Positions 1,398 to 45,198 of a DNA stretch of 64,000 nt are shown one piece after another. The translations under genes were made by a program, and so were the position numbers. How positions within the stretch are numbered: the first letter of the stretch is position 1; each line of letters opens with the position of its first letter. Under the pieces are notes generated by a model, which worked only from the letters and a program-made list of their open reading frames with translations, was not told the DNA's origin and did not search any database. The DNA is taken from NCBI GenBank assembly GCA_973895155.1, contig OZ316891.1, positions 1,789,324-1,853,323 of the forward strand, read 5' to 3'. Source of the DNA: Marsupella aquatica (lineage: Eukaryota > Plantae > Marchantiophyta).

Positions 1398-1604
1398 AAC
1401 TCCCCCTTGACTCTTGTCTTGGGGACTGGACTAAATGCAACCATATGGAATCCTCAGCGGGAAGTTCTAGACAATCACCAAACCAGGTCTCCCCCTAAAA
1501 ACCACAAGGATTAACTAAGGGTTAACTAGAACTAAGCCGTAGCCTAACAGGAATGAGTAATCCATATACAAATAGTCACACATTGTTAAATAACTCTACT
1601 TGCA

Positions 1605-7566: not shown

Positions 7567-7578
7567 GCTCTGATACCA
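7567..7578 (-). promoter_or_regulatory. Primer-binding site (tRNA-iMet) of element A
   Basis: GCTCTGATACCA on + equals TGGTATCAGAGC on -, 2 bp from the 5' LTR. Confidence 0.93.
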
Positions 7579-7580
7579 CT

Positions 7581-7924
7581 TGTTGAGCATAGACGACATT
7601 CACAACGACAAGCCCATGAACCATCCAACGCACAATAGTCGACACAGAGAGATACATGGTTCACCTCCACATGAGGCTACGTCCACGGGAACACACAAGA
7701 GCTTTATTGCACTCTAGGCCGATCGGCCATACCAAGTATCCACAGCACAAGCTCTCCCTATCTCTCAACTAGCTCCGTAACAATGAGCCTAAGTTCCACC
7801 AGGGTCTGGCATCAGCCCTGGCTATATACACAACAGCACTACCGCTAACATTAGCTAAGTCCTAACCTGAGTTAGACTAACTGTGATTAGCTCATGAGTC
7901 ACAAGACTAGAACAATATCTAATA
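7581..7924 (-). repeat. 5' LTR of copia element A
   Basis: Colinear with 1054-1397; 11 substitutions counted by eye. Confidence 0.95.
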
Positions 7925-21713: not shown

Positions 21714-22412
21714 CGGGGGTTGACATCCAATGACTTCGATCACGAGATTGTCGAAGATACAGTGGCATAACAAGCGATAAAACATTGCTACGCTCTCCTT
21801 CCAAACTGATCAGAGATCATCTGAGGCAGGATCCTTCGTATTCACACTGACTTTAAAAAAATACATCAAAGTGGGCTCTTATGGTGAGAACTAGTCATAT
21901 ATATTTAAACACAGTAAACCATAATTTGGTTGGCAGCCGACAACAAGCAGAGTCCGTAGATCTGTCCCAACAACAAAATCTAGACTGAATCATTATGGCG
22001 ACGGCCTATCCCACCATCAAACCAGCATTTCTCTAATGTTCATATATACAAGATGCAAGCTACGGACGCAAAGCTAGATCCTGCAGAACTTTTCGTCGCT
22101 GCTGGGCTGTAGAGCTGTCCCCTTGAATTTGCTATACATCCCTTGAGATAGCCTCCTAGCTTGTGAAACCTGAGAAGCTCAAGACAAAGCTGTCAATGCC
22201 ATTCCTATCTCAAGCGTTCGTGAACAAGTCCCGAATTAGTTGAACGGTCCACAGGCAGACTGCACAAGGGACTTCTACTAAGCATCGCGTACTTTTATAC
22301 CGGATCACGGATCGGGGTTGCGAGCTGTACAGGGGCACTGAATTTTTGGAGAAGTAGTACTGCTACCTTTGTATCAAACAGTGTCACCTTCGTTTCAACA
22401 TTGTATATCTGC

Positions 22413-23850
22413 TCACGCGCTTCCATTCTCCACGTATTGTACAAACTGCTCAAAATGTTTGTGTGCTAAACTCGTCAATTTTACCAGTTTGATACGGTAC
22501 TCTTTGAAAGTAGTTTGACTCTCTTCACTGTCAAGAAATTGTTGCACCTCGTTTTCGGCGCACTCATGGAGTCTCTCCAAAAAGGCTTCTGCCTCCGCTT
22601 GCGAGTACTGCAAGTTGAACATTTGATCATGATCAGGTAGGTAGTAGCGATGTGCATACGTCCACTTCAGAACTTGTCGACACTCAACGATCTGCAGCCA
22701 TGCTTTACTCAAGAATTCCAATTCGGACTTAGTTTGGCATTGCTTGTCGTAGAGCTTGTCGACCATCACGGACTGCACGTGCTGAAGATCTTCAAGGGCT
22801 TTTCTCCTCGAAGATTCATTCGCAACCCAGCGTTCATAGAAATGCGTGTAACCGTCTAGCGAGTCTTTACCAGTTTTTCTTCTGTTTTGTGCTTCATCAA
22901 GCTGACCCTGTGTCACGGCATCATCATATCCATTACATCCGTAGTTTCCTCCCGACTCCTCATTGTGCGTGGTCCAAGCTCCAAGACACAGCCAGCAGAA
23001 TTCGAACCTGCAGGGTGCCTGGCAGGTCATATGGATGCACCCGTTATTTTTTTCTATTGGTCGCTTACACTTGGGACAAGCCTTGGAGTTGACCAGAATC
23101 TAGTTCATGTTTTCGGATTCTGAACTAAATCTCAGAACCCACTTCGCAACAGTCTCACAATCTGCAGGCCGGTGAGCCTCCAACCAATTCCAGCAAAACT
23201 TGTGGGAACACTTGCACAGAATGGACAAAGAGCCAGCTTGATGCTCACACTCCGCTGCAAACTCGCACCCGGGAGCCGGACACCACTTGGTCGTCTTCCT
23301 GTTTTCCACGAACGCTCTCAGCCGATATCTTGTATACTTGGCTTCGTCCTGTGGTGAGACCAGCGATAGAACCATGTCTTCCAATATAGCAGCGCTGCAA
23401 GACGGATGAGCGCAGCGCAGAGTCAAACAGCCGGGGCCGTCGTCAATTGCGGTGTGGATGTATGACGTCCAGCATGTGTCGCAGAAGAAATGTCCACAAG
23501 ACGAGGCAGATTTCCTTTGCTCCGAATTGTGCGACTCGAAGCAGATTCCGCATGTCATGTCTGGAAAAGATCTCCTTTCCTCTTCCTGTTGTGGATGGGA
23601 TTGGACAAGCCCCGCAATTTTGCGCACTCGCTCCTCATCTTCAAACCATTCCTCATTCACTTTGCTGAAGTTCCAATTGAAATGTTGCAAACGAACAACA
23701 GCTTCAGGCCTCGAGAGTGATATGACAGTGGTGACCCTGGAAACCACGTCTTCTTGGCGCTGCTGGATGTCCTCCGGACTTAGAATTTCATAGTCTGAGT
23801 GCTCCTTGTTCTCGTCCTTCTCGACTTCTTGGTCAGACCCGTCATCATTG
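22413..23850 (-). pseudogene. ARI: ARIADNE-like RBR E3 ubiquitin ligase, intronless copy 1 (start deleted, internal stop)
   Basis: RING1-IBR-RING2-Ariadne domains. TGG>TAG at 23100-23102. An about 100-bp deletion removes the MEDPLDW start seen in the other copies. Confidence 0.9.
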
Positions 23851-25573: not shown

Positions 25574-28500
25574 GCAAAAACCAAGTAGTCCGGGCACATT
25601 TAATTTTCTGTGAGACATCTGGAGAATTGTGCTTGAATACTTTTGCTTCAGATCAGCCTGCAACGGGTTGGACGGTACGTTCCTTCCCCTCACGATATAT
25701 TGTCAACTGTAACGTCGATCACTACCTTGTTATTTCCATCCCATCTCCATCCCAACCAGGATCCCAACAATCACGACAACCACAGTGGATTCGATCTCAA
25801 AACGCGTTTTAGTTCAGTTTCACGGCCATCTCCAAAGCAGGTGTTTTTATTAGACTGCGTTGTCCACTTCATTTGGGGTTCACGGTTTAGGGTCCACCAT
25901 AGTCACGGAGATTCTCATCTATTGCTAAGAATACATTGCCATAATTAACCCCACGACACCAATTATCAAAACATAAGGATTTTTTTCAGATGGTCTAGCT
26001 GTTTCTTACTTCAGCGCTGGTCGCTGGTCATACGTAACTACAATCTGCGATCCCTGAGTTCCGGCCTCAACATATTCATTAGCTGTTATGTAGTCATTCG
26101 TCATTCTCTGTTCCTTATTTCAGCGCTGTCACTTGTCATGTGTAGCTAGGTACTCACTACTATAGTGGCCAATCCTTATCTGCAATCAACTCATCTTGCA
26201 TGTCATTCGTTGGTCCCTCAGACACTCGTATCCTCGTATCCTGCTGGAGTTTGGGTCCTTACGTAGCCTATTTAAGCCAAGCAAGCCCGTCAAAACTTGA
26301 AATAGCAATCGGGAATCCTTCGCTGATCGAGCGTTCAAGCTGTTGAAGATTCTTCCTTCGCTGAGAATTTATCAACTTCTCGTGCATTGTTGTTGCCAAG
26401 CGCCAGCTTAGGGCACTTATCCTTCTCAGCAAATGGAGGATCCTCTGGATTGGGCATCGGATGGAGAAGACAACGTCTACTATGACAGTGAAGACGATGC
26501 AGATGATGGGTGTGACCAACAAGTCGAGATTAACGAGAACAATGAGCACTCAGACTATGAAATTCTAAGTCAGGAGGACATCCAGCAGCGCCAAGAAGAC
26601 GTGGTTTCCAGCGTCACCACTGTCATATCACTCTCGAGGCCTGAAGCTGTTGTTCTTTTGCACCACTTCAATTGGAACTCCAGCAAAGTGAATGAGGAAT
26701 GGTTTGAAGATGAGGAGCGAGTTCGCAAAATTGCAGGGCTTGTCCAATCCCATCCACAACAGGAAGAGGAAAAGAGATCTCTTCCAGACAGGACATGCGA
26801 AATCTGCTACGAGTCGCACGATTCAGAGCAAATGAAGTCGGCATCGTCGTGTAGACATTTCTTCTGCGACACATGCTGGACTGCATACATCCACACCGCC
26901 ATTGAAGACGGCCCAGGCTGTTTGACTCTTCGCTGCGCTCATCCATCCTGCAGCGCTGCTATATTGGAAGACATGGTTCTATCGTTGGTCTCACCAAAGG
27001 ACGGAGCCAAGTATTCAAGATACCGGCTGAGAGCGTTCGTGGAAAACAGGAAGACGACCAAGTGGTGTCCGGCTCCGGGGTGCGAGTATGATGTGGAGTG
27101 TGAGCAACAAGCTAGCTCTTTGTCCATTCTGTGCAAGTGTTCCCACAAGTTTTGCTGGAATTGTTTGCAGGAGGCTCACCGGCCTGCAGATTGTGAGACT
27201 GTTGCAAAGTGGGTTCTGAGATTTAGTTCAGAATCCGAAAACATGAACTGGATTCTGGTCAACTCCAAGGCTTGTCCCAAGTGTAAGCGACCAATAGAAA
27301 AAAATAACGGGTGCATCCATATGACCTGCCAGGCACCCTGCAGGTTCGAATTCTGCTGGCTCTGTCTTGGAGCGTGGACCACTCACAATGAGGAGTCGGG
27401 AGGAAACTACGGATGTAATGGATATGACGATGCCGTGAAACAGGGTCTGCTTGATGAAGTACAAAACAGAAGAAAAATGGCTAAAGACTCGCTAGACCGT
27501 TACACGCATTTCTATGAACGCTGGGTTGCGAATGAATCTTCGAGGAGAAAAGCCCATGAAGATCTGCAGCACGTGCAGTCCGTGATGGTCGACAAGCTCT
27601 ACGACAAGCAATGCCAAACTAAGTCCGAATTGGAATTCTTGAGTAAAGCATGGCTGCAGATCGTTGAGTGTCGACAAGTTCTGAAGTGGACGTATGCACA
27701 TCGCTACTACCTACCTGATCATGATCAAATGTTGGAGTACTCGCAAGCGGAGGCAGAAGCCTTTCTGGAGAGACTCCATGAGTGCGCCGAAAACGAGGTG
27801 CAACAATTTCTTGACGGTGAAGAGAGTCAAACTACCTTCAAAGAGTACCGTATCAAACTTGTACACTTGACGGGTTTAGCACACAAACATTTTGAGCAGT
27901 TTGTACAGATACGTGGAGAATGGAAGCGCGTGAGCAGATGTACAGAAAAAGTTAAAACGAAGTGGACACATTTAGACAAAGTTGGCAGGACTCCTCAAGT
28001 ACCTGGCTCTCAACGCCGATCTGTGATCGATCCGGTATAAATGTGCACAATGCCACAAGTCCATAACGGAGTCTGCCTCTAGACCATCCAACTAATACTG
28101 GGACTTATACACGAACGCTTGGGTTAGGAATTCCACAGCTTTGTCGATCTTGAGCTTCTCAGCTGTCACAAGCAGGCTCACGAGCAGGCTCACGAGATGT
28201 ATAGCAAACTCAAGAGGACGGCCCTATTGGGCAGCGACGAGAAGCTCTGCAGGATCTAGTTTAATTTGCATCCGTAGCCTTGCATCTTGTATAGATGACC
28301 GCTAGAGAACTGCTCCCACTCTGCTTGTTGTAAGCTGCCAAACCAAATTATGGTTTAGAGTATATATGGTTAAATATGAGTAGTTAGAGCCGACACTCAT
28401 GTATGGTTTGAGGGTCGGTATGAACACAAACGATAGTGCCTGAGATGATCTCTGATCAATTCGCGTAGCCATTTTTCGTCGCTTGTTATGACACTGTATC

Positions 28501-28758: not shown

Positions 28759-30797
28759 CGGCTCTAACATGTTTTCACCAGTGGATTAGTGGATTCTAAT
28801 TTCAAGAAGGATAATAGTGAAGACCAATGGGTTTGTGTTGAGTGTGATAATTCCAGTATTTGTAATATTTACTCAGTTAGTTTTCAGAAGTGGATGCTCT
28901 CATCCCATATGTATGGAGCAACATTAAGAATCTGTAGCCAAGTAAGATGTCTTACACTTTACAGACAGGAGTAGTGGATGACTTTTTTAGCTTGTTAAGT
29001 GCAATGTCAACTCTAATGTCTTGTAGTGAGTTTTCGTTGAAATTCTTTGGAGAACTTTGATATGTAGTCCTATATGTAGTTTAAATTAGATGTTTGTGTG
29101 CTAAAGCCCCAATGGCTTTCACACATTGCCAAATATTATATGGCAATATGTTTGTTTAGTGTACTTGTCACTTAATGGTACATTAAATAAAATGTGCATT
29201 TATGATTGAATCTCTTCGCAAAAGATTTTTTTTATAACAAATGAAGGGTGTTTTAAATCTCCAAATCTATCTGATTATAATAACATAGGTAAGTTTTATA
29301 TAGGACTGAAAATTCTGTTCAGAACGAACAAGATACATTTTAATGGTCTTCCAAAATATAACAAGGGGTACATGGGGGGCCTTCAGTCACAGGTATGTCT
29401 CAGTACATTTCCCTTAGTGAGGGCCCAGGGGCTCAACATAAGCACCTTTCACAAAGGTATGAGCCAAAAGTCCATTGACAGGTTTATCGTAACCACCATG
29501 GGCCCTCACTCTATGTATACTAAGTGTACCCCTGTGCCCGGACCCCCCTTGCCTACCCCTTCTTAGTATTTTTTCTTTCATATACATTACCCTTGTTCCA
29601 TGTAAAAAATTAGTTTTTGATAATTTTTTATACCCTTAGGTGACTTATAAAACTGATAAAATCTATATTTGAAAACCCATTGTGGAATTATAATAAGGAA
29701 AACCCAAGATAGGGCTAACATACAAGATCCAAAATGATGCATACAACGCCTAGTGGGCTTAAAATCACTCACACAGTTTAGATATGTTTTACCAGTTTGG
29801 CTAAACTAGTATAGGCAAGACTACGGACAAGACATGGATCGGTAGGGAATAGTGTTGAGCATAGACAACAATCGCAATGGCAAGCCCATGAACCATCTAA
29901 CGCACAAGAGTTGACACAGAGAGATACGTGATTCACCTCCACAGGAACACACATGAGCTTTACTGCACTCTAGGCCGACCGGCCATACCAAGCATCCACA
30001 ACGCAAGCTCTCTCTATCTCTCAACTAGCTCCGTAACAATGAGCCTGAGTTCTCACTCTCCAAGCAAACACCGCTTGGTTATAGAGTGTGCACAGCATGA
30101 CTAACCTAACCAAGTCTGCGACTAAGGTTAGCCTTAACTACGGTACAGTCGTAACTCTAGACCTAAAACACGATTTCGGACCGAACGAGAACTATTTCCT
30201 CTAAACGAGAAGTGTATTTTCATTTTCCGCCGAATCTCGCGAAATCGGCAGTTTTTTTCATCAAAAACACATTTTTGGGGAAATAATGTAATTCGTATCG
30301 GAGTTCGGATTGAAACAACAAATTTAATAATGATCAAAACCAATGAAATTCATGCTAACAAACATTCATATTATCAAGGAACAATTAGATCCGAAAAACT
30401 TTCTCCTCAACCTCATATTCACGCTCTCCGAAGATATATGAAAGGTCTTATCTATAAATCTATATCCATGTTTCGAGCCAAGTGCGATAACTGTATCGGA
30501 CTCCGGATTTGAGCCATGAAAGCTCCGACCCAATCTCAGTTTTATCAGTTTTTGGATATTTACCAAAAATATTTTACATCACAGTCGATAAGAATTACTG
30601 CACGGTTCGTCAAACTTACCTTGCAGTTACCTCCACAATTGACCAGTTACCTCCGCAAGTGACCATAGTCAACATGCCATTCTTTCAACAGCAATGCGTA
30701 GTCCGATAAAATTATCGCAAAAAATATGGGCGACAAAAATACTAGTCGACAATACTAAGATCCTTCGGTTCATCGGTTAAATTTCAAAATTCCTATC

Positions 30798-31000
30798 CAT
30801 ATGAAGAAAACTCTTCGCAATACCAACATCAGATAAATTTATCGCTTCAATTTCAGAATTGCAACTTCCATATGAAGGAACCACTTTTGCAATACCAACA
30901 TCAGATAAATTTATCGCTTCAATTTTAAATTGCAACTTCCATATGAAGGAACCACTTTTGCAATACCAACATCAGATAAATTTATCGCTTCAATTTCAAA
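30798..31000. repeat. About 72-bp tandem repeat, 3 copies, each carrying AGATAAATTTATCG, upstream of the transposase promoter
   Basis: CATATGAAG...GCAATACCAACATCAGATAAATTTATCGCTTCAATTT repeated; motifs at 30831, 30903 and 30974. Confidence 0.88.
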
Positions 31001-31092
31001 ACTATATAATTTTGCCACGATGCACTTGTGAGAATGAAATTGGAAATCCAAGAAATATACCCTTTTCTGCTATTTTGTCGTTTAGGGTGACA

Positions 31093-31144
31093 GCCAATCA
31101 AAAGTGGACACATGGGCCAACCCCTCAACAGACACTATAAAAGG
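31093..31144 (+). promoter_or_regulatory. Putative transposase promoter (CCAAT box and TATA box)
   Basis: GCCAATCA near 31093 and CTATAAAAGG near 31135, about 120 bp upstream of ATG 31257. Confidence 0.5.
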
Positions 31145-31256
31145 GCCACCGCTGATAAGTTTTTGGCGTCATTATCGAGAGTAGAGTTTTGGGAGTTGTG
31201 TTCTTGGAGCAACATTCTGTCCGTTGAGCCTTTCGTTTTCCCTGATTGCGGGAGGA

Positions 31257-33750
31257 ATGCAAAGCCCCATAGTGTCTCGGATAGCCATGTCTCAATCAGA
31301 CACAGATTCACCTTCCAGTTCAGTTGAATCCTCTTCTAATCTTGTCGCTCGCTATTTGCCAAGTCGCATACTTAAAGCTCTACCTCTCTCACAGCAAATA
31401 GTGCCCGAAATCTCTGACTCAGATTCTGATGCAAGTTCTGGTCCTGAGCCCAGTGCTTACTATGTGTCGCCTAGTAAACCTGAGAAGCGTCGTCTCTTGA
31501 GCGTTCCATCGCCAAGAAATGAGAAACTTTCAATCCCAGGTTTAGGTCCGAGACGTCGCTTCAGGCCATCTAGCCCGGGTTATGGAGAGGGTATCCAACG
31601 ACCGATATGCGTATCGCAGTCGACATTCAAGTCGCCACATTCAACACAAGTTCAACGACGGATCTTTCAATCTCCGGGTGAGGATCGGGACACAGAAATA
31701 CAAAGACTGATACGGCGATCGGTCTTTGCATTGCCTGGACTGGATGTGCGAGCAAGCGAGGGAATCGGACTGCGAAGTCCAGACTCGGCCCTTTCTCGAA
31801 TGGTCCGTGGGAATCGTGGTGAACAAGTGCTCAATTTTCCAGTAGCTCGCGGAGTCATTGGGACTGCACGTGCGAATCCAGAATCTCCAAGTTCTCAAGG
31901 GCGGACTATCATTGGTTCCAGGCTCCAAGTATCGAGGAGAGGTCTTAGTGGCGTTCGGGTTATGTATAGAGAGCCACGGAGTCCAATTGTGTTTTCAGAT
32001 GAGTCGAGTGCATCGGAGGACGAAGATGAGGAAGGAGATAGAGAATCCGATATAATAGCACAAGTTGTGTCTGAATGTTTAGAAGGAGCTGTCGAAGAGA
32101 ATAGTTATAGTCGTCTATTCAGTGCCCCTCTAAATGCGTCAAGGAGATCTGTAGAGGATGGTAGCTCAGCAGAGAGTGATGCATCTATTCGCGAGGCACC
32201 TGAAGGACCTGAAAATGCCAATGTTATGAACGGATTTCAGGCTGTAGAGAAGTCAAATGAGCCTAGTAAAAAAGATAGGGACCGAATTACTAGGAAAGAC
32301 AATGTGATAAATGACAAATTGAATAGAAACAAAATGAGAGAAATTCATAAGTATTCGTGTTGTGATAATTACTGTCTGAGGAATTTGGGTTTGCTAGCCG
32401 TGACGAAACAACGCACTTATTACTATGGGCTATCCTACCCAAAGAAGAACGTCCTTCTAAGAGGATGTGTGAAGGGTGGGCATGCTGGTGCAAGTGGTTA
32501 CTCAGTTAGCGGTAGATCCTTTTGTCGGAGTGGTTTTAAGAAATTATTTTCACTAGGAAATAATCATCTCCAAAAAATCTCGTAGAACATGTTTTCTCGG
32601 ATACAGATCGATACAGTTTGTCGAGAAAAATCACCCGCACATCTTGGTCTCGTCCAATGGCTGGATGATTTTTTTTCCACAAATGTCGAGAGTCTCCCCA
32701 ACAAGGATATCTTTCATTTACCTGACAATTGGACAAAAACAGAAGTTTTTGATGCCTTCCAGTCCGAAACTCTAATGCGCCAAGAACAAGGCATGACATA
32801 TTCGTGGTTTGTTCGCATTTGGAACAAGAAGTTTCCTCGCGTGCGCACCCCCAAAAGGAGCCGTTTCTCCACCTGCGCCCCATGTACTGAATCAAAGCAG
32901 TCCGCGACAAGGCAACACTCGAAGCAGAAAAGAGTAAGTTTCTAAACCTGTGTGTTACTCCCGATAATTTTATCGGGTTGAGTATTCATGTGCTTCTTCT
33001 TTGGCCATGTGAGTGAATATATCGTTTGAACAGTTTGAATACGAACCTGATAAATTTATCGCTGTCACAGTTTTTCATTACGGTCTTGTGTTTGAATACT
33101 GAACCCGATAAATTTATCGTTGTCACGGTTTGTCATTACGGTTTCGTGTTTGAATACTGAACCCGATAAATTTATCGCTGTCAGGGTTCAACATTGCGGT
33201 TATCATGTTTTGTCCTAAACATTTTTATTATTGTAGGAAAATTCTCAACATTGCTAAACGAGCATCGGAAGGGACAAGCAATCGAGAGGGAGAAGTTAGC
33301 AAAGCACCGGAGCAAATGTTACAAGAGTCCGGAGAAATATTTGGGCATCTGTATTGATGGAATGGATCAAAAGAAGACAGAGTTACCTCATTTCATTCGG
33401 TGTCCAAAGAATATGGATGAAAAGTATTTCATCCCCGTACACGTAGTGGGTTGTTTGATCTTCAACAAATAATTAAGTTCAAATGTTTTTTTGAACTATC
33501 CAAATATTAACAATGATAGCAACTTGACCATCCACGTTATCCAGCATATTCTGAATACCTGGGAAGGTCTGCTCCCTCCAGTGCTTTACCTCCAGTGCTT
33601 TACCTCCAGCTTGATAACACAGCTCTGGAAAACAAGAATAAATATCTTATGGCATATTTGAATATGTTGGTGAAGATAGGTGTTTTCCATAAAATAAAGG
33701 TTGGTTTCCTATTGGTGGGGCACACCCATGATCAAATTGATCAAATGTTT
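31257..33750 (+). pseudogene. Sola-like DDD transposase, 2 exons, disrupted and 3'-truncated
   Basis: Long S/P/R-rich N-terminus; CCDNYC; WNKKFPRVRTPKRSRFSTCAPC; catalytic-like motifs ICIDGMDQ, LYLQLDN...ENKN and FLLVGHTHDQIDQMF. GT-AG intron 32934-33236. Lesions: TAG at 32583, frameshift near 32890, TAA at 33470, 14-bp duplication near 33595, truncation near 33750. Confidence 0.85.
33035..33183. repeat. About 58-bp tandem repeat, 3 copies, in the transposase intron, each carrying the GATAAATTTATCG palindrome
   Basis: TTTGAATAC(T)GAACC(C/T)GATAAATTTATCG(C/T)TGTCA; motifs at 33048, 33106 and 33164. Confidence 0.88.
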
Positions 33751-35283
33751 ACCCAAGCTTCCAGCTCACCATATATTTGCTTCCCGTTCATTTTAAACAA
33801 CTCGGACTTTGCCCGAGCACCATGATTCCCTCCAATAATTCTATACTTCCATACCCTTGACTTCAGGATGTCCCAATCTGCGGTTGTGGGACAATCCTTC
33901 GGATCCACACACAGCACGAACGGGGCACTGAAGTTGGTGGGGTTTTTCATGAGAAGTATCTTGATATTTTCCACATGCAATCTATTCACTGGTCTAATCA
34001 AAGTTGACAAATCCCCCTCCTCATCAAATATGAGATTGTCGACATGCAGAAGCACAGTTGTCCTTTGCACCCTTCGTTGCATCAGAAGACTGAGCTCTGC
34101 CTTGATCGCGTCCGTCTCATACATCGAAAGAGCCGTCTCCTCCTCCTGATCAGCCTACAAAAGCGTTGCAAATTCAATTAAGGAAAGAAACTGCGAGATT
34201 TTTATCGGAGTTTGCATTTGTTCAACATAACTCCACAATCCGCAATTCAGGAAATAAACAGCGAGATTTTTATTGGATTTCGTATTTGTTAAACAGTACA
34301 ACGACATAGTACTTACCAATGGCGCCGCAGGAACCGCGACTGGAACTGATGGAATTGACGGAGCTCTATCTACTTCTGCAGCCACCGTCTCAGTCTAGCC
34401 AGTCCTCTTCCTCTTTGTGCTAAGTCCAGAACCAGATGGCCCGGATCCCTCGGATCCTTTACTTTCGCTTGGTTTAACGGATGGTCCTCGACGGTTGCCC
34501 CGGCCTCTCCCACTACCGCCAGTTTCCTGGCTCTTCTTCCCACCGTCAGAGGTTCCCGCGGCATCTCCCCTGCCGCTACCTCTCCCTTTCCCTCTTCCAC
34601 TTCCCGAAACCCGACTAGAAGTTGTAGGTTCGTCCACGTCAATATGTGTAGAGGATTGCAATGGTTCTTTCCGCCCCGACATTTTATCGGCATTAGAACC
34701 ACCGCTACCACTTGAACCTGGTTTCTTGAAAACAATTTTGCGGACAGGTTTGAACTCTTCACCCACGTCTTTCGTACTCTGCGTTCACCCTTGGAAGCAT
34801 GATGGCATCACAATCTTGCACATACTAGCCGATCCAAGCCGAACCCATAACATTCATCTCTCTTGCTGCCCGAACTTCCGCAACAAGGGGATCTTCTGGA
34901 TAACTGTCCATCAATTTCTCATCAAAGTTATCGAGAGTAACAATGAGAGATGTGAAACCCTTGTGCCCACACATTGTCAAGAAACTAAGGCCCTCTGTCA
35001 ACACTTTTCCCTCCCCGTGGCCAACCATGAACTCGACGACGGCAACAGCAATGACAGGGCCATACGAAACATTAACCTTCGCCGATTTTTGCAACTGGAC
35101 CCAAAGGATTGGGGTAGCACAATCTTCAAAACCCGTGGACTGTAATCTGGCGTCACGGAAGTACCATGACTTCTTGATACACTTGACCTCTTCACAAATG
35201 TCTTCACTCGTCCAAATTGCATTGGTGAGGCTTGTCATGAGACTTTCTGCCTCAGCAGATCCACTCTTTCCACTAGCAGCCAT
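33741..35283 (-). pseudogene. Transposon cargo gene with a ParB/Sulfiredoxin-like domain, 3'-truncated
   Basis: ATG 35283 (MAASGKSG..); Gly/Ser/Arg-rich linker at 34395-34766; in-frame phase-0 GT-AG intron 34316-34155. The last exon reads LHVDNL..IRPVN..HVENIK..APFVLCV..YRIIGGNHGARAKSEL..LEAWV, matching the ParB/Srx core pattern. Stops at 34825 and 34395, plus a frameshift near 34780 if the first ORF belongs to the same gene. Confidence 0.7.
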
Positions 35284-35481
35284 GGCAAAGTCTGCAAATA
35301 AACAAATTCCAATGCAAAGAGCGATAAAATTATCGCCGCCAATCTCACAGCACATGTGGACACGACATCTCATCACACAAGGACAAAGAGACCCGCAATG
35401 CAAATGACCGATAAAATTATCGCAAAAGTGAGCCTTCTTTAAATTGACGGCCGAGTGTACAGGTCGAAGAATCAGCTACAG

Positions 35482-35523
35482 AACCCTAAATCCAAAACCT
35501 TAACCCCTAAACCTAAACCCTAA
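35482..35523. repeat. Degenerate plant telomeric/telo-box tract inside the transposon
   Basis: AACCCTAAATCCAAAACCTTAACCCCTAAACCTAAACCCTAA. Confidence 0.65.
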
Positions 35524-36233
35524 TCATAGTTGAACCTCGCCAGAGCAAAGCGTTCGATCCGCTTCTTGGGCCATTGGGGAATATGAGTGACGCGATGATC
35601 ATAAGCCCACAGCCAATGGAAATCAACTTCACCAGTCTCAGGATTCACTACTGCTACTGAATACCGGCGTGACAGAATGTCACAACAAGCATTTGTGCAG
35701 CATGGACAGATCTCACCATTGGCAAGGACGTTTGTCCACAGGCAACTTACATAGATCAAGTTAAAGAGAGCACAGACCGGCTGGGGGGGGAGTTGACGAA
35801 TCTTGTATGAATATAGTTTCCCACCAGTGTCAATAAAAAACTCGGTGGCAAGAGGATTGTCCAGCTCGTCAATCACATCCTGAATCTCATCGAATGCTCT
35901 ACGTCTGTTGTCGGCATAGAATTCTGGCTCATAAGCAGGATTGCCCTTCACAACATCACAGCAGTGGAGTATAAAACGTCTTACTACACCGGTTTTCAGA
36001 AAGAGTAGGATAACTCTTCTAGAAAATCCAACATATCTATCCCACCGAATATAAATTTCTCCCCCTACCTGATCTACGTAGAAGTGAAATGCGTTATGGA
36101 AAAACGGTTTTACTACCAGCCTGCATATCTTTAAAATTAGTGACTCATCCAGCCTCCTTAGCTGGTCCAGCATGGCTCCATTCCCCCATTCTGGAGGATC
36201 CAGGTAGGGTACAAAAATGCGTCGCTCGAGCAT
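35520..36233 (-). CDS. Transposon cargo ORF, 237 aa, possible divergent split F-box-like protein
   Basis: Uninterrupted ATG-started ORF. LRRLDESLILKICRLV and LFNLIYVSCLW resemble the two halves of an F-box motif separated by an insertion; Cys cluster CPCCTNACC. Confidence 0.55.
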   Translation of the reverse strand: MLERRIFVPYLDPPEWGNGAMLDQLRRLDESLILKICRLVVKPFFHNAFHFYVDQVGGEIYIRWDRYVGFSRRVILLFLKTGVVRRFILHCCDVVKGNPAYEPEFYADNRRRAFDEIQDVIDELDNPLATEFFIDTGGKLYSYKIRQLPPQPVCALFNLIYVSCLWTNVLANGEICPCCTNACCDILSRRYSVAVVNPETGEVDFHWLWAYDHRVTHIPQWPKKRIERFALARFNYD

Positions 36234-36548
36234 GGCCTGATCACCGAATAGAAATCAGGAATAAATTTTGGAGAACATACTAATTACAATTCTACAAGTT
36301 TCATCCAACTTTACAGTATCTTGTATAACGGGCTGTGAAGCCAATGCACTTGTCAGCTAATCGTCCGAAGAGGCGCAAACAAATACACTCTGGACCACAC
36401 AACCCGAAGTCAGGGGAGGCAGAGTCAATTACATTCAAAGTGTTTCTTTACAAGCTCTTCTCGAGCAAACCTTAGAGCACCCAAAATCGACTAGAGGAAT
36501 GAGGAGTGCGATAAATTTATCGGATGTTCGCAGCAATGCCTCATCCAC

Positions 36549-37097
36549 TCAGACTCGTCCATGCCATGCAAGAATTGTCCGCTTCCCGCTTTCTCCAAGA
36601 TTTATCCAAACTCTAAGAAACTGATCTAACTGCTCATACGAAAAGCACCCAAGCATATCTATGGGAGGGAGGAAATGAGTTTCCTCTCGGAAGACCCTAG
36701 CAATATGTATGTTTGAGAGAAGGTCGGCATTAGGAATGCTTGCGAGCATTTTGTTTATGTCATTGATCTCACGGACTGCATATTTCAATAGCGCCCAAAA
36801 TTGTGTACCAACAACAAGATGGTTCCATTTCTTTGAGGTGGCTCCAAGACAAATGATTGTTCTCATTCGAGTCAGTCGTTCTTCTAGTAGAAGTTTTAGG
36901 TCAAGGCCAAGGTGTTCATCTTGTGTGCAAGACAAGGCTAGGAGGGGCCAAATGTGAGATTCAACGAGTTGATCGGGAAGTCCATTCAACAAACTTCTGC
37001 ATTCCACACCGGGCACTTTTTCTCGAATATATTTCCTACGCTCGTGGGCTAAAACGGATCCCATCTTTGCAACGATTAGATTCTCCGACGCAACCAT
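36549..37097 (-). CDS. Transposon cargo ORF, 182 aa, F-box-like protein
   Basis: LLNGLPDQLVESHIWPLL...IICLGATSKKWNHLV follows the plant F-box pattern (LIPGLPD..L...I...L / L..VSK.W..LV). Intact ORF. Confidence 0.68.
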   Translation of the reverse strand: MVASENLIVAKMGSVLAHERRKYIREKVPGVECRSLLNGLPDQLVESHIWPLLALSCTQDEHLGLDLKLLLEERLTRMRTIICLGATSKKWNHLVVGTQFWALLKYAVREINDINKMLASIPNADLLSNIHIARVFREETHFLPPIDMLGCFSYEQLDQFLRVWINLGESGKRTILAWHGRV

Positions 37098-37291
37098 GAA
37101 GTAGAGCTACCAAAACCACCAATAAAAATACCTTCAATCACCAGGTGTAACCGAACACATCCACAGTACCAACCCTGCACGACAGTTTAACGATTAGGAC
37201 TTGTGACGTATTATATTCGCTGCGCAAGGGTAGGACTTGTTTATTTAAATATGTCCTTACAAGACGCGCCTCAATGCAAAGGTCGAAACAC

Positions 37292-37621
37292 TCATCGTGA
37301 AAGGTTCACCCAAGGGTCTTCGTTCCAAATCTTACAACAGAAGTGAGCCTGTTTGTGGTACTTGTTGTCAAGACGACGACAACAATAGTTACAAGAAAAC
37401 TCCAAAGAATGTAAACACGCCGTTAACATCAACCTCGAACGAATTGGAACTCCTGCATCATTCATTCCGCATAATTCAATGCAGAGAGGATTCTGCCTAT
37501 CTCCAGGATCAGTACCACCCATCCACAATGCTCCTATACCGATGGGGAGAACTTTGAGTCGCACGAGTCTCTTGTACAACCGGCGTGCACGTTTGACACA
37601 ATTTTCAAGGAAGACAGCCAT
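37292..37621 (-). CDS. Transposon cargo ORF, 109 aa, small basic Cys/His-rich protein of unknown function
   Basis: ATG-started ORF co-oriented with the other cargo genes; CLH..FSCNYCC..HFCC. A TATA-like CCTATATAAAG lies on the minus strand near 38213-38223. Confidence 0.4.
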   Translation of the reverse strand: MAVFLENCVKRARRLYKRLVRLKVLPIGIGALWMGGTDPGDRQNPLCIELCGMNDAGVPIRSRLMLTACLHSLEFSCNYCCRRLDNKYHKQAHFCCKIWNEDPWVNLSR

Positions 37622-37755
37622 TTGTCACAATACCTGTTGTCCACAGAGTGCAATCGACCTTCCGTTGTGCCTCCTAAACCCGGCAACACTGCGACATCAG
37701 AGATGAAGATGAGTCTCCAAACAAAACAAAGGAAAATGATTCTCATAGGAGGATG

Positions 37756-38086
37756 CGATAAGTTTATCGCACTCCGCATTCGAATTGAAAATATGACTTC
37801 CTCAGACACCTAAGCCCTGAATTCAATCTTTCACAAAAATACAACTCCGATAAATTTATCGGATTCTCAATTACTCCTCTTTCCATGAAAGGAATGAAGA
37901 CTCCGATAAATTTATCAGAATGAAGGCAACACCTCTCTAAACACTGGATCAAATGATTGCAACAGAGGAATGCAGAATGCGATAAATTTATCGCAGTCCG
38001 CTCAGATCTGGACATTTTACACTAAATGACTAGTTAGTCTTACATGGAGAACTTGAACAGGAATGGCTGTTCCGATAAATTTATCG
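37756..38086. repeat. Cluster of five CGATAAATTTATCG-type palindromes upstream of the cargo genes
   Basis: Motifs at 37756, 37848, 37904, 37980 and 38073; TGCGATAAATTTATCGCA at 37978-37995 is a perfect 18-bp palindrome. Confidence 0.9.
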
Positions 38087-41000
38087 GGTTTTTGGTAGAA
38101 AGAGTCGAATCGCTTGGGAGGAATGTAAGACTCGATGGGAGTTTGGTATTCGCTCTCAGTCAGGAGATATTTGCTCTGGCGAAAGCAAACGTTTTATGGG
38201 CAGCCCGCTCCTCTTTATATAGGAGACGCTCTACACCATGGTTAATTTCCCCTTAACCATGGTTAAGTTTCCCCTTTACTTGGATTAGTGCGTGGTCGTT
38301 CCTGGATTACGCGGTTCGGACCAAGTTACTCGTAGTTCAAACTTTTTCACTGACGGAATGTAAAACCCGATGCACGTATCGCTCCTTGCATCCCGCGGCG
38401 ATGCAATGGAGGAAAGTGGCGTTTCGGAGAGTTTTTGCCAGTTTTATTGGTCATTGCATTGCCTTAGAAAAAAAACGGGATCGGGCTAAACGAGAACTCC
38501 GACACACTTCTCGATCGGTCCGAAATCGTGTTCTAAGAGTAAATCCTAACAAATAGGTGGGCAGTGGCAACATCCCCACAAGCATGGGCACTGCCTGCAC
38601 CGAGCGTGCACTCTACATTGGAGAGACTATAATTACAAACGTGATTACAAACCAGATAATCAAGCTAAGATATGGGTCTAGGTACTAATAGAGTGATTCA
38701 CTCGGGACACTATGTTCCAATGATTGAGACCTTGCCACATGGCCCCTTATACAATGACACGTGTTACATACATTATAGGACCCCTTCGGCTAAGATAATA
38801 TGCCACGGTTTTGGAAATACCCTTCTTCCTTATAAACCCAAATTTGTATAAAGTTGAGGGTTGGTTGGTCCTAATTGAATTATAATTATTAGCCGAAAAT
38901 GGATTAAAAATACCCTACAAGTGGGCACACGTGTTTCTGGGATTACGTAAGCTGAGGGCCCACGGCGTAGCCATCAACGACTTCGGATAGATGCAATGTT
39001 CAAGTCTGCAATGGGGATGCCGACTGAGCATTTAATCTATAACCACTGCGTGTTTTCTCTCCAAAACATGTACTCAAATCTTGGTCACTTACATCAGTTA
39101 TCTTATAAGGATTTTCACCGACATTGGGGAGTCCAAAGGTGAAAGCAAAATATGTCGGGTCTCTCTGGAATTCTACAGGATCCCAATCCTTTGTACTCTT
39201 TGAGTCGCTCTTCCAACTTGACCCACACGGTTCTACTAAAACAGCAGGCTTGGCACCCCCAACAATTACAGGTACATCTCTAACTTGCGGCGCTCTACAT
39301 GGTCTATTGCATTAGACACATTTTCCAAAAGTCCATCGAGGTCAAGAGGCACAACACCCATCGTAACTTAGTCTGATTGAGGACACATACAAATGCAACA
39401 GTCTGACAAAGTAAAGTTGCATGGCTACAAATCTAACTTCAACATTCAATGGAAAAGGTGACCAAGAAATTGGAAAAGGAGCAAAAGCTATTCACCCTCG
39501 CCTCAAATCAATCCCCCAAATTTAGCCACCAAATCCTTGAACAAAGTCTTGCACTCTTCGACCGCGCCTCGCCTCAAACCTCCTTGATTGTCAGTAGTGG
39601 ATTCCGGCTAATCAAATGTGATGCAAATGAGATGGAAAATTGCTGTCCGTGGAAGGGTCAAGCTGGTGCGCCTCACCTCCAAATGCGGGATTCAAAATCA
39701 TCTAAGTGCTAGGCAAGAACGACGAGAGAATCCAGAAGTGTCCAAGTGAGAGCAGTTTGCGCGCAGTGACCTTCAACAGAGCCCAAAAGAGACAAACAAA
39801 TTAAATGTGGCTTCGCCAACACACATCAAGTACCCCACCACGCCGGGAAAGCCGTGTCAAAGGATGTGACTCCTGTGAAGGACATTGTCACTTGCTTATC
39901 CAACGATTAATACGTGCAAACCATACTTTTCCTTGCTTAAACCGTTGGTATCGTATTATGGGGTCGTGGAGGGACGCTATTTGGAGGATTTCCACACCTA
40001 AGGATGAGTATATTTGATTTCGCTCCCGGAAGTGTACTTTTTGATCAAGTCTACCGACTGGTCTCTCCGTTTTTGATCAAGTCCAAGGGACTGGTCCTAC
40101 CATCTACAACTCATGCCCATCGGGTGAGTGCTGTCACCACCCCCCTCTCATGGGCAAGCATACAAACGTTTACAACAAGATTTGAACACTAGTGACAAGG
40201 GCAAATGTTTCCACAACGAAACCGACCACATGCACTAGGGGAGGAAAACAAACAACACAAGCAACAACAAGTGACACACAAAATATTGGAACCTCAAGTC
40301 AAATCCATATCTCTTGGTGTTTCCCGTAACACATGCAAGGACAACCCGGCCTCATGCCGTCTGCCCAACTCCTGCCTCCCGGGGACAAGTGCTACGTTCT
40401 CCACCTCACTACTCTGGCTTGAACTTCTCCTAATTGGTGCGCTACTCACAAAAACTACTCAAAAGCATCCAAGCACTACGCTGAGTTCCCCCCTGTACCT
40501 GCTCTTGGAAGCCTTCATAAACTCCCGCCTGGCCTCCTCACTCACGGTGGCAGCCTCGTGTCCCAGTAGCACTCCGCCCTGGCACTCACGCTCCTTCAAG
40601 GCACGCGGCCCTATGCAAGGCGCGCCTTCTCCCTCGCGGCTCCCCCTGCTTTCTCACTCGCGGGGATTCTTTTTTTTGGGGGGGGGGGATTTAACCCCTC
40701 CCCGTTTTTCCCCTTTTTAACCCCCTTCTGGTGTGCTGCACTATGCCTCCCCTGGCGCTCCTCGACAGTCTCCCTCGCGACTCCCCCAGTCTCCCTGGCA
40801 GTCCCATTGGCCCCGGTGCTTGTGTCTTGCCAGGTACAATGTTAGGATTTACTCTTAGGTCTAGAGTTACGACTGTACCATAGTTAAGGCTAACCTTAGT
40901 CACAGACTTAGTTAGGTTAGTCATGCTAGGCACACTTTATAACCAAACGGTGTTTGCTTGGAGAGGTGGAACTCAGGCTCATTGTGACGGAGCTAGTTGA

Positions 41001-41169
41001 GAGATAGAGAGAGCTTGTATTGTGGATGCTTGGTATGGCCGGTCGGTCTAGAGTGTAGTAAAGCTCATGTGTGTTCCCGTGGACGTAGCCTCATGTGGAG
41101 GTGAACCACATATCTCTTGGTGTCAACTATTGTGCGTTGCATGGTTCATGGGCTTGCCGTTGCGATCGT

Positions 41170-42698
41170 TGTCGTGGGGATTCTTTGTTTAGTAAGTTCC
41201 TCCTAAGTATAGCTTAGTAGTATAGGATAGTAGTTTAAATTCTCGCATATGCAGTCTATAGTGTGCATGCTACAGTGCACAACCTACAGTGTGCATGCTA
41301 CAGTACACGGTCTACAGTATGCATGCTATATTGTTCGATCTACAGTGTGCATGCTACAATGCAAGACCTACAATGTGCATGCTACAATGTACAATCTACA
41401 GTGTGCATGCTACAGTGTACATGCTACAGTGTACGATCTACAGTGTGCATGCTACGGTGTACGATCTACAGTGTGCATGTTACAGTGTACGATCTACAGT
41501 ATGCATGCTATAGTGTACGATCTACAGTGTGCATGCTACAGTGTACTGTCTACAGTTGCTCCACTCACGTAACTACAGTACTAGCACACTTACTTGCCTT
41601 GGATGTGTGACACATGGCTTCCATCCATGTGCCATGCTTGATCCGTGTGCTTGAGGTGTGAGCACTATAAGTAAAGAGGAGAGGGGCTCTCTCCCCTCAC
41701 TCCCCATTTTTCATCAACTAAGTTGTGAAGTCTTAAAAATCCATTGGACTTGATGATCTCTTCTATGAATATAACCCTTATGAAGTAGACCCACTCATGC
41801 ACTCTTGCTTAGAGCTTCGGCTCGGCCAGAGATATTTTGTATGAGTCGGACCTTCAAAAAGTGTTTTCATTTGATAGGAGATGGTTATTAAGTTCTAAAG
41901 AGTTGGAAAGTGCTCAACAATGCCTTGACATCATATGCTTTCTTTTGGGTGAAATCCTTATGAAGTAGACCCACTCATGCACTCTTGCTTAGAGCTTCGG
42001 CTCGGCCAAAGGTATTTTGTATGAGTTGGACCTTCAGATAGTATTTTCATTCAAAAGAAGATCAACCTATTAAGATAAACGTCTGCATGTATATACTTAG
42101 AGTTAACTCAATGCATGATATTTGTTTGAAATGGATGATCTTTTTGTTGAATGATTCTATCTCTTGTCATTAGAATGAAAATTAGTTGGATGGAATATTT
42201 GATAGTACGATAATGCCCAGACTAGTACCTATTCTTCCTCTCCCTAATCCTTTCCTTATTAGAATTCATGTACTCCAAAAAGAGATAATGCGCCAGCATA
42301 TGACTTTTCACTTTGGAGAAGCATTTGCAACTGCGGTATTAAATTCAATAGAGCCAATTGTATACCCTTATGTAGTTTACGGGCAGGATTGGGCTTGCAC
42401 AATTTTTATCTTGTATTGAGATGGATCTCAACAAACCTCCCTCCGATGAGCCTCCCGTTTCTTTCTCGTTGGGAGATATTCGTTTTGTAACTCAACCCAA
42501 GGTAGCTGCCAAGGAGGCAATAGTCCGTAGGTATGGAGAAAAGGGTTATGATGTTGTGCTTTCATCCACGGAACCGTTCCTTGTGGTGTCTGCTACCCAA
42601 TCTAGAATAGTAATCATGATCTTAACTTAAGTTCTCTCTTGACACTAGTAGCCATAGGCCCGGTGCTTCCTCAAGAACCACATTTTTCCCCCCAGACA
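41170..42698. mobile_element. 1.53-kb non-coding TGTC...GACA insertion (solo LTR of another family, or a non-autonomous TIR element)
   Basis: Termini TGTCGTGGGGA and TCCCCCCAGACA; TSD TCGT/TTGT inside the element B LTR. Internal minisatellite, a TATA-like CTATAAGTA near 41665, and an about 95-bp direct repeat at 41776 and 41956. Confidence 0.72.
41249..41555. repeat. Minisatellite, about 28-bp unit built from two related 14-mers
   Basis: CTACAGTGTGCATG-CTACAGTGTACGAT repeated about 11 times with variants. Confidence 0.9.
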
Positions 42699-42913
42699 TT
42701 GTCGTCTATTCTCAACAATTGGTATCAGAGCATGCTTGGGAGGTGATGAGGTTTTTTTGTGATGGTTTTCCAGTGTTTATTGTCGGTGTTGCATTTAGAG
42801 TTTTGTCGCACGAAACTCGAATGTGTGTGGCTGAGAGGATAGATTAGTGAGAGGGCTTTCTATCGGTGTATAGAACTCATTGGTTGGTATCCGTTGTATG
42901 GAGGAATTGGAGG

Positions 42914-45198
42914 TTGAGCCAATCAGGTTTACCACAAGAATTTTGGGTAGAAGCTGTCAATACCGCAGCTTATTTGGTAAATCTTTCTCCTTCTAGTGCT
43001 ATCAATTTCAAAATGTCGTTTGAGATGCGCTATAAGCGGCCAGCAGACTATCATGGCTTGGTAGTTTTTGGAAGTGATGCATATGCTCTCACACCGAAGC
43101 AGAATAGGACCAAGTTGGATCCTACCTCCAAGAAATATGTTTTTCTTGGGTACCAAAGTGGTGTGAAAGCTTATAGGCTATGGAATCCTATCGCCTGTAA
43201 GCTCGTTGTCAGTAGGGATGTTTCCTTGAATGAATCCAGATTATTGAAGGAGGGGAAGAATACTCAGGTCTCCCATACTGATAAAGGAAAATCTCCTATC
43301 CCGGATCTTGTTGAGGGGGAGATTGGTCATGAGGTGCATGACCGGAGAGAAGGAGTTGCTCCAATTATGGAGTTGGTTCCTGTGCCAGAGGAACCAAAGG
43401 AGTTTGTTGATGCTGGTGAGCAGCAAGTGGATGCTGCTGAGCTTCAAATTGTACCAGCACACGCAAATCAACCGGAGTCATCGGCTAGAAGAACATCTAG
43501 TCGCATTGTACGCGCTCCACCAAGGTATGGACAGTGGGTTGATTCATCTCAGTTGTAAGAGGAGGATTTTGTTACTGATGATGAGGGTGATGCGTTGATA
43601 CTTGAAGAAGGGGAACTTTCTTCATTTCATGAGGAAAGTGCTTCTAAGGAGAAGCAGGAGTGGACTGCAGCAATGCAAACAAAGATGCAGTCACTAAAGG
43701 ACAACAAAACTTGGGAGCTTGTCAAGTTGCCTGAGGGACAGCAAGTGGTGGACAGCAAGTGGATATACAAGCTAAAGGATCAATCCATGGTAGGTGGATC
43801 GAAGGTCTACAATGCTAGGTTGGTAGCCAAGGGATTTACACAGGAAAAAGGTGTTGATTACAATGAGGTCTTCTCACCGGTTGCTAAGTACTCAACAATA
43901 CTGCTATTGTGTGTGCTTGTTCTTATGTTTGGTCTGCTGCTAGATCAGATGGATGTTGTCACAACTTTCCTCTATGACACCTTGGAAGAGGTGATTTTCA
44001 TGAGACAACCGCTAGGTTTTGTGAAGAAAGGGCAAGAGGATTTGGTTTGCAGATTGTTGAGATCCTTGTACGGGTTGAAGCAGTCACCAAGGCAGTGGAA
44101 TAAATAGTTTGATGATTGGATTCATGCACAAGGCTTTCACAGGAGTGTGTTTGACCCATGTGTGTATCTTAAACCGGTGAAGAATGTTGTCTTTGGGTTC
44201 ATTGTTTTAGTGCTTTATGTGGATGACATCCTTATTGCTGCCAAGGATAGATCTGAGATTGTTAAGCTCAAGGCACTGCTAAGTGCAAAGTTTAAGATGA
44301 AGGACTTAGGGCCAGCTAAGAGGATTTTGGGTATGGAGATCACTAGGGACTTGAAGACTGGCAAGCTATGGTTGACGCAAAGCAGTTATGCGAGGAAGGT
44401 AATTGCAAGGTTCAACATGGCGGATAGCAAGCCAGTAAGTACCCCGTTGGCTCCACACTTCAAATTGTCACCAGCTTTCTGTCCTACGGATGACATAGAG
44501 AAGGGGTTGATGTCAAAGGTTCCGTATGACAAGGCAGTGGGGAGTCTCATGTATTTGATGACTTGCACTAGACCTGATCTTGCCATGGCTATGGGCAAGG
44601 TGAGTAGGTACATGTCAAATCCGGGGAAGGTACACTGGGAAGCAATGAAGTGGATTATTTGGTATTTGAAGGTACCGTGGATCATGGTCTATTGTTTGAT
44701 GCACATGCTGATAATGCTAGATCATTGATGAGCTATGTAGATGCTGACTATGCACAAGATCTGGATCGGAGGAGGTCAACAACAGGTTATGTGTTCACAC
44801 TGGGAGGTGGATGCATAAGTTGGTGGTCTACTTTGCAGAAATGTATTGCTCAGTCTATTACAGAAGCGAAGTATGTTGCAGCAGCGGAAGCAGCAAAGGA
44901 AGCGATTTGGTTGGATAGACTTATCACTGAGATGGGATTGCCACACGGGAATATGAAGCTCCATTGTGATAGTCAAAGTGCACTCCACCTTGCTGTGAAC
45001 CAGGTGATGGACAGCAGAGTGAAGCACATCGACGTTAGGTACCATTTTATCAGGCAAGTTGTGTTTGATAATATGTTTGAGCTAGTTAAGATTGATGGTA
45101 AACTCAACCCGGCTGACGCTTTTACCAAAGTGATTCCTTTGGAGAGTTTTTCTAGGCACCGTGATGTGTTGTAGGTTTTGCAATTGCCTCACAAGTAG
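42914..45198 (+). pseudogene. Copia pol remnant (IN C-terminus, RT, RNase H) with stops and frameshifts
   Basis: LSQSGLPQEFWVEAVNTA, ARLVAKGFTQEKGVDY, LYVDD and DSQSALHL; closely similar to element A pol. Confidence 0.93.

Follow-up and report, generated by a model that had tools for sequence, protein, structure and literature searches.

What does a bacterial-type ParB domain do inside a transposon of a land plant? The question arises in a stretch of 64,000 nucleotides from the liverwort Marsupella aquatica (contig OZ316891.1, positions 1,789,324 to 1,853,323; the whole stretch is called the window below), in which a spliced gene on the minus strand, starting at 35283, carries such a domain within a cut-and-paste DNA transposon of 8.4 kb (30167-38532). 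The reading that accounts best for what is found, to which we give a probability of roughly 0.58, is that this is a dead, internally deleted copy of an element whose relatives encode a ParB-methyltransferase that likely binds sites within its own element and would methylate DNA in it and around it, perhaps as an anti-silencing factor. The case is built from the gene in related loci, the predicted fold of its ParB unit, and a set of palindromes scattered through the element; a preliminary description, made from the letters of the window, had recognized the ParB-like exon but mentioned neither the 17 palindromes, which tell the most of all its features, nor the pseudogene state of the copy.

The gene can be followed to its end in relatives of the window copy. 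A metagenome scan yielded five related loci, of which L001 and L003 contain three exons, L002 exons 2 and 3, L005 exons 1 and 2, and L004 a part of exon 2; exon 2 shows slight damage in L001 and L002, with one stop and one frameshift. Intron 1 of the window gene (34155..34316, minus strand; 162 nucleotides, phase 0, GT-AG) recurs at this position and in this phase in L001 and L003, and its acceptor is shared by L002; the preliminary description, which had proposed this in-frame intron and made its account depend on the junction recurring in other copies, is borne out here as far as the conserved position goes. Intron 2 occurs at one common position in L001-L003. As read from these sequences, the intact gene of the relatives has three exons and encodes an N-terminal domain without known family, a ParB/Noc/KorB-like unit, and a beta-class amino-methyltransferase. 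The guess that the missing C-terminus might hold a helix-turn-helix (HTH) or methyltransferase domain was thus a good one, as the relatives carry both.

Exon 3 matches N6_N4_Mtase above the Pfam cut-off in all three loci that reach it (L001-L003; E 4.5e-8, 2.2e-7, and 4.8e-8). It contains the motifs D[IV]PY, NPYQKP, and DLCCGTG, the catalytic motif, of the (D/N/S)PP(Y/F) type, preceding the S-adenosylmethionine motif, which is the order of the beta class; D[IVL]PYG recurs in 24 of 30 homologs, the remaining six being shorter or not resolved, and the methylase motifs are strongly conserved in the plant lineage nearest to the window. These beta-class features belong to the relatives only, the domain being absent from the window copy. 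The best NCBIfam match is CcrM (10 of 134 members), within a group of CcrM/YhdJ-type matches, and the methylase exon alone retrieves no PDB sequence at E 0.01. The methylase is rather likely to be active, with N6-adenine a likelier target than N4-cytosine, because the motif is of the Asp type and the matches are CcrM-like. Fusions of ParB and methylase in a single open reading frame (ORF) are seen in P0031, P0046, and P0050; P0031, from Chara braunii, has two such units in tandem.

The family extends well beyond these loci. A profile search gave 293 proteins at E 0.001 or better, 150 of them listed, and the 20 clusters that were looked up (12 named) include Chara braunii, Riccia sorocarpa, Adiantum nelumboides, and Ginkgo biloba, together with Holothuria, Branchiostoma, Actinia, and Clastostelium; one of them also contains a stray bacterial entry of 56 residues. 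Word-based searches of viral contigs, prokaryote genomes, and plasmids, which reach close relatives only, gave no close relative, and in a viral structure library ParB/Spo0J-like phage proteins were matched at 8-18% identity. Two members carry fusions of another kind: the ParB unit is joined to a SAM domain in P0055, and in P0099 to a region with a weak Tudor-like match.

In the window the same gene is a remnant. Exon 1 (34317..35283, minus strand) runs from the ATG at 35283 and encodes the N-terminal domain of about 165 residues, followed by a low-complexity linker; it is conserved in relatives, being 33% identical to L001, L003, and L005 (E 1e-29, 3e-24, and 2e-32 in a search within the loci). 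Its domain has no match in Pfam, in PHROG, or among longer proteins; PPR matches in the PDB were rejected as summed weak repeats. The Gly/Arg/Ser-rich linker ending in KRKR, pointed out previously, is present in the window, but its composition is not conserved: three relatives have linkers rich in Ala, Pro, Thr, and Glu, and these three have a KRK-type basic patch at the start of exon 3. The remnant of exon 2 (33752..34154, minus strand) encodes the ParB-type N-terminal domain, 83% identical to the homolog P0001, from which its fold is taken, and the peptide motifs quoted in the preliminary description lie in the minus-strand frame 34154-33741 as claimed. A reading frame uninterrupted from 35283 to 33741 does not exist, however, since exon 1 is broken by a TAG at 34827-34825, by a change of frame near 34766, and by a second TAG at 34397-34395, two codons after KRKR; two extra bases at 34766 occur at a high share in contigs from two of the four sequencing runs compared.

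The downstream end of the gene is equally artificial. At 33751..33752 an internal deletion junction joins the transposase gene, cut on the plus strand, to the ParB exon, cut on the minus strand. Contigs of other copies extend past 33751, those of runs X1 and X2 in the transposase frame and those of run X4 in the ParB frame, and none of the nine longer homologs stops at EAWV, the last residues of the remnant; the deletion has thus removed the 3' ends of both genes, and with them the DNA-binding domain and the methyltransferase exon. The 127-residue ORF of the preliminary description ends at this junction, its last residues and its stop being the antisense strand of the transposase. This bears directly on the simplest alternative, a stand-alone, sulfiredoxin-like or nucleotide-binding protein of 127 residues: the ATG at 34124 does open 127 codons, and sulfiredoxin does match the N-terminal domain at a VIA Z of 7-8, but with a stop created by the deletion, nine of nine longer homologs continuing past EAWV, and ParB and Noc outranking sulfiredoxin, its probability is close to nil.

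The element around the gene was correctly taken for a DNA transposon, as its inverted repeats, target duplication, and DUF7869 transposase attest. Its 25-bp terminal inverted repeats (30167..30191, plus strand; 38508..38532, minus strand) match at 24 of 25 bases and are flanked by CTAA on either side (30163..30166 and 38533..38536, plus strand). The insertion is in the end of a long terminal repeat (LTR), of which two uninterrupted copies (40867 and 45390) show a single CTAA at the insertion point, the empty site; CTAA is therefore a true 4-bp target duplication. The transposase gene (31257..33751, plus strand) matches Pfam DUF7869 at E 1e-28 for 33520-33822, has a probable intron at about 32934-33238, with approximate ends, and is broken by a stop at 32583-32585, a 14-bp duplication near 33575, and the cut at 33751. 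Opposite to it, on the minus strand, lie three accessory ORFs (A, B, and C) and the ParB gene. With the internal deletion and the lesions in transposase and exon 1, this copy is dead. Sola DNA transposons have terminal inverted repeats and a 4-bp target duplication, both of which are present here, and DUF7869 is presumably linked to Sola transposases; from the duplication and DUF7869 together, the element is probably Sola-type. Contigs from all four sequencing runs compared (four of eight listed, from two studies with two organism codes) cover it in all 30 bins. The open frame in L002 that converges on the methylase exon (2994-3539, minus strand) has no Pfam match and may, by its position, represent the transposase C-terminus lost from the window copy.

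The assignment of the ParB unit rests on structure, because Pfam returns nothing for the window exon at E 1; among the homologs HTH_ParB appears only at E 0.05-0.09, in two of nine. The model is that of P0001 as a stand-in, built with 134 sequences at a pLDDT of 91.4 (an earlier model from 11 sequences was poor, at 54, and was not used). Searched with Foldseek against the PDB, it finds ParB and Noc of Myxococcus and Bacillus in the best 11 of the matches listed (E 3.6e-6 to 1.4e-4), followed by KorB; these ParB/Noc alignments span about 280-310 columns and cover model residues of about 22-310, and sulfiredoxin first appears at E 0.02. In VIA, with 270 chains aligned, ParB reaches Z 11.3 and the Caulobacter ParB N-domain Z 10.9 (98 residues at a root-mean-square deviation, rmsd, of 2.4), while KorB aligns over 203 residues at an rmsd of 4.5; the isolated Noc DNA-binding domain, at Z 5.2 (114 residues, rmsd 4.4), is middling by itself. 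The high rmsd to closed ParB structures is attributable to domain orientation. By sequence, the close alignment has its best PDB match in the DNA-binding helix of Spo0J, at an E of 0.07 that is weak alone, and the deep alignment A3 finds no PDB match. With an N-domain of ParB/sulfiredoxin fold followed by a helical HTH domain, the model of P0001 therefore suggests a two-domain unit of the ParB/Noc/KorB type.

Sulfiredoxin is a single small domain with a catalytic Cys in GCHR. The present protein is multi-domain and has Cys at the corresponding position in only 7 of 97 sequences, against Asn in 50. The modeled protein is thus ParB/Noc-like and not sulfiredoxin-like; of the ParB/sulfiredoxin fold proposed in the preliminary description, the ParB half stands by structure search, and the likeness to sulfiredoxin falls away.

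The pocket in which ParB binds cytidine triphosphate (CTP) looks substantially altered, when its residues are placed by motif spacing, which is not a residue-level superposition. The first-box Arg (64 of 69), the GG, the His at the position of R79 (89 of 97), the Ala, and the third-box Asn (97 of 101) are kept; the position of R80 is Arg in only 4 of 97, that of E78 is mostly Asn (50 of 97), and that of E111 is His (83 of 101). The GGNHG of the window exon does lack the canonical second arginine, as had been remarked; four members, P0134, P0096, and P0140 among them, retain the ParB arginine after the histidine. In the work on Bacillus subtilis, R80A abolishes CTP binding, and E78 and E111 are required for hydrolysis (PMC8494293), and Caulobacter ParB is described as requiring R103, R104, and R139 (PMC8367383). 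The paired GERR and ENLQR motifs of ParB CTPases are not found, so that membership in that group fails, though ParB-like site binding may still hold.

These replacements bear on the possibility of a sliding clamp gated by nucleotide, in which the ParB unit would load at the palindromes and carry the methylase along the element. The family retains the entire N-domain and DNA-binding-domain fold of the ParB CTPases, and the first-box Arg, the His of GGxH, and the third-box Asn are conserved from plants to animals, pointing to a kept ligand pocket or an interface between N-domains. Yet the residues at the positions of R80, E78, R79, and E111, which bacterial ParB requires to bind or hydrolyze CTP, are replaced, and nucleosomes would block sliding. 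A classical CTP clamp is doubtful because most residues of the CTP site are lost, and we consider a sliding clamp of this kind quite improbable; the nucleotide-binding clamp of the preliminary description is weakened, since the replacements are family-wide.

If the ParB unit binds DNA, the element offers it conspicuous sites. The sequence CGATAAWWTTATCG has 16 matches in the 64 kb at up to one mismatch, against 0.05 expected, and with two mismatches to the perfect palindrome allowed, 17 are counted, every one inside the element and none elsewhere in the window; mostly flanked by C or G, they form a 16-bp dyad. None of the 17 falls into coding DNA, which makes up 61% of the element (p about 3e-5, counted as 11 clusters). 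Five lie in the left non-coding end (30485, 30704, 30831, 30903, and 30974; 30485..30987), the last three in a 71-bp tandem repeat; four in the probable transposase intron (32962, 33048, 33106, and 33164; 32962..33177), three of them in a 58-bp tandem repeat; two just upstream of the ParB gene (35322 and 35409; 35322..35422); one between ORF B and ORF C (36509..36522); and five in the right non-coding end (37756, 37848, 37904, 37980, and 38073; 37756..38086). An origin of the sites as hairpins or miniature inverted-repeat elements was dropped, as they are single 16-bp dyads with unrelated flanks.

The related loci have palindromes of their own. L003 contains 20 copies of CCGATCCAAACATCGG (0.01 expected), and GCGAGACNNGTCTCGC occurs 12 times in L001 (0.02 expected), eight times in L002, and three times in L005. 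With three mismatches allowed, 49 of the 50 sites in these four loci are non-coding, many of them within the introns of the ParB gene; intron 1 of the window gene contains one degenerate palindrome on the frame SCGA-N8-TCGS, which all site types share and which occurs 14 times in the 8.4-kb element, against once in the remaining 55.7 kb. None of the three site types is met with in a lineage other than its own, and they follow three ParB lineages: ParB N-domains are 82-88% identical between loci that share a site and 48-64% between loci with different sites. The specificity of ParB has been switched to that of Noc by few residues, with G201 as a switch residue (PMC7383237); the position aligned to it is Gly in L001-L003 and His in P0001, which fits but proves nothing with so few lineages.

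It is probable, by analogy with ParB at parS, that the helical ParB domain binds these palindromes as a dimer. The spliced protein would dimerize on the dyads through this domain and so bring the methylase to its own element, targeting being by direct site binding and local action instead of by a CTP-driven sliding clamp. Sites would be retained only where coding allows, and multiply by tandem duplication, as VANC motifs do. That the purpose is anti-silencing or self-regulation is a tentative proposal, with odds a little short of even; the methyl mark, or occupancy of the sites, would keep the promoters at both ends usable or tune expression. Since the window copy makes no such protein, it could only be a target in trans. 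The ratio of observed to expected CpG is 0.83 in the element, with sites masked, versus a mean of 0.64 in the tiles outside (8 vs 54 tiles, p 0.01), which hints weakly at escape from 5-methylcytosine or at youth.

Several observations weigh against this reading. Two of the eight element tiles fall under the outside CpG mean, and the difference may reflect age or composition. The DNA-binding domain is deleted in the window copy, so that P0001 has to stand in for it. The match of sites to lineages comprises five elements and three lineages, and shared descent would give it whichever protein binds; L004 (1,086 bp, mostly exon) has no site; and 10 of the 17 window sites are no more than 820 bp from an end, as expected of transposase sites. 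Finally, the methylase model is matched at E 0.01 or better by only 9 of 41 long members (8 above cut-off), some of the misses being due to exon splitting by gene callers and others to erosion; in the sea-cucumber (P0172, Holothuria) and amoebozoan (P0134, Clastostelium) members the catalytic motif is eroded and the S-adenosylmethionine motif kept. With few model matches and eroded motifs, the methylase appears dispensable or dead in some lineages.

The points concerning the sites could mean that it is the transposase that binds the palindromes, these being sub-terminal repeats spread by tandem duplication, and that the ParB-methylase acts without them. Five sites at each end are within 820 bp of the termini, six stand in tandem repeats, and lineage specificity would suit a transposase equally well. 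Against this, 7 of the 17 window sites lie 2.0-3.2 kb from whichever end is nearer, sites occur in the introns of the ParB gene in L001-L003 and L005, the terminal repeats do not contain the site, and the 16-bp dyad form matches that of parS, given as 16 bp (PMC8494293); we regard transposase binding as unlikely. The points concerning the methylase could mean a KorB-like architectural or regulatory factor, which represses or loops promoters or joins the ends, methylation being secondary. In its favor, the sites are concentrated around the two TATA-bearing ends and ahead of every accessory gene, the alignment to KorB covers 203 residues, and many family members show no methylase or an eroded one; the strong conservation of the methylase motifs in the plant lineage closest to the window speaks for the contrary, and such a role seems to us very improbable. 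The self-targeted ParB-methyltransferase thus remains the preferred reading.

Its nearest known counterparts are algal. A fusion of ParB and methylase has already been reported for a Sola1 element: Sola1-1_Ec32 of Ectocarpus encodes a ParB-like domain with an N4C/N6A methyltransferase, proposed by the authors to bind and modify its own element (PMC12477816). As in the present family, where the orientation is that of the window and the fusion that of L001-L003, a single protein unites the two, encoded on the strand that faces the transposase gene; the element is brown-algal and 21.5 kb long, the passages concerned name no binding sites, and the likeness is drawn from the published description. 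To that account the present family adds a plant genome, lineage-specific palindromes, and the degeneration of the CTP site. In the red alga Bostrychia, Plavaka elements are reported to carry a ParB-like PAG3 beside inverted-repeat arrays proposed as its sites (bioRxiv 10.1101/2025.02.11.637652). PAG3 and PAG2 resemble the present system in the ParB-like DNA-binding domain, the adjacent putative sites, and a methylase in the same cassette, and differ in that, as the preprint presents them, ParB is fused to a 2-oxoglutarate oxygenase, the methylase (with SET) is a separate gene, and the transposase is of the EnSpm type; their repeats stand in arrays by PAG3, whereas the window sites are spread over all non-coding parts.

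Bacterial ParB/Spo0J, Noc, and KorB, with their parS or NBS sites (PMC8494293, PMC8367383, PMC7383237), share the N-domain and the helical DNA-binding domain, and their 16-bp dyad sites have the form of the candidate sites here; unlike them, the present family is eukaryotic and spliced, has most CTP-site residues replaced, and is fused to a methylase. A Pfam scan of the element's ORFs gave no ParA-like match. A functional likeness is proposed to VANC of the Arabidopsis VANDAL elements, whose motifs are described as lying in non-coding regions and tandem repeats and as differing between families (PMC5735166): here too a protein encoded by the element goes with short motifs that are particular to the family and lie in introns, between genes, and toward the termini. 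According to the same source, however, VANC removes 5-methylcytosine and its motifs are non-palindromic, of 8-9 bases, whereas the protein proposed here would write a mark. Prokaryote-derived amino-methyltransferases are otherwise on record in green-lineage genomes, in the ParB-HTH-fused group-2 Dam-like family of chlorophytes and chytrids, for which the passages concerned name only the HTH (Iyer et al., PMC4738411), and in MpDN4MT1 of Marchantia, a host enzyme for N4-methylcytosine (4mC); the main text of the preprint on it makes no mention of ParB (bioRxiv 10.1101/2021.02.12.428880). No land-plant account of such a gene was found in the literature searched, which comprised main texts with few subscription journals and no Repbase reports, and in which only the algal papers and the Iyer review touched the subject. 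What is added here is the range in land plants, a methylase that is intact, a ParB fold of two domains whose pocket is rebuilt, and the three-way match of protein and site.

A bolder version, which we think improbable though still worth stating, is that DNA transposons of plants and animals took over the whole parS-ParB module, so that a ParB with a rebuilt nucleotide pocket would load at parS-like sites peculiar to the element and spread N6-methyladenine (6mA) or 4mC along it, site and DNA-binding domain co-evolving as a private code of each element family. If the favored reading is true, non-flowering plants, among them ferns, liverworts, and Ginkgo, harbor transposons that set a bacterial-type DNA mark of their own at addresses particular to themselves; the problem solved by VANC in Arabidopsis would then have a second and unrelated solution. 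The reading would also name a definite origin and definite locations for 6mA or 4mC in plant genomes, make the suggestion of the two 2025 algal genome papers testable with three protein lineages and three predicted 16-bp sites, and provide, in ParB domains that differ naturally in their sites, a test bed for the evolution of specificity.

Of the accessory genes, ORF C (35520..36233, about 237 residues) has no family match; ORF B (36549..37097, 182 residues) has a sub-threshold F-box-like match at E 0.06; and the Cys/His-rich ORF A (37292..37621, 109 residues) has a weak homolog in L005, upstream of the ParB gene there (25% identity, pairwise E 3e-5). All three are on the minus strand and stand in tandem with the ParB gene behind one TATA-bearing right end (35283-38230, minus strand). 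An AG precedes each of the four start codons by no more than about 15 bases, and a single leader may be spliced to these genes as alternative terminal exons.

Outside the element, two Ty1/copia-like elements in opposite orientation (40833-45700 and about 1050-7900) share the LTR family hit by the transposon. An ARIADNE-like RBR E3 ligase sequence (IBR, UBA_ARI1) is present in no fewer than four nearly identical copies that lack introns, 87-100% alike and in both orientations, at 26412-28040, 22400-23850, 47860-50400, and 60670-62800, as retrocopies or by transposon-carried amplification. Together with the named relatives of the ParB family, these copies and the copia elements point to a plant as the host. 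Tandem arrays are found at 41194-41584 (14/28 bp) and at 56780-56890 (9 bp, GC-rich).

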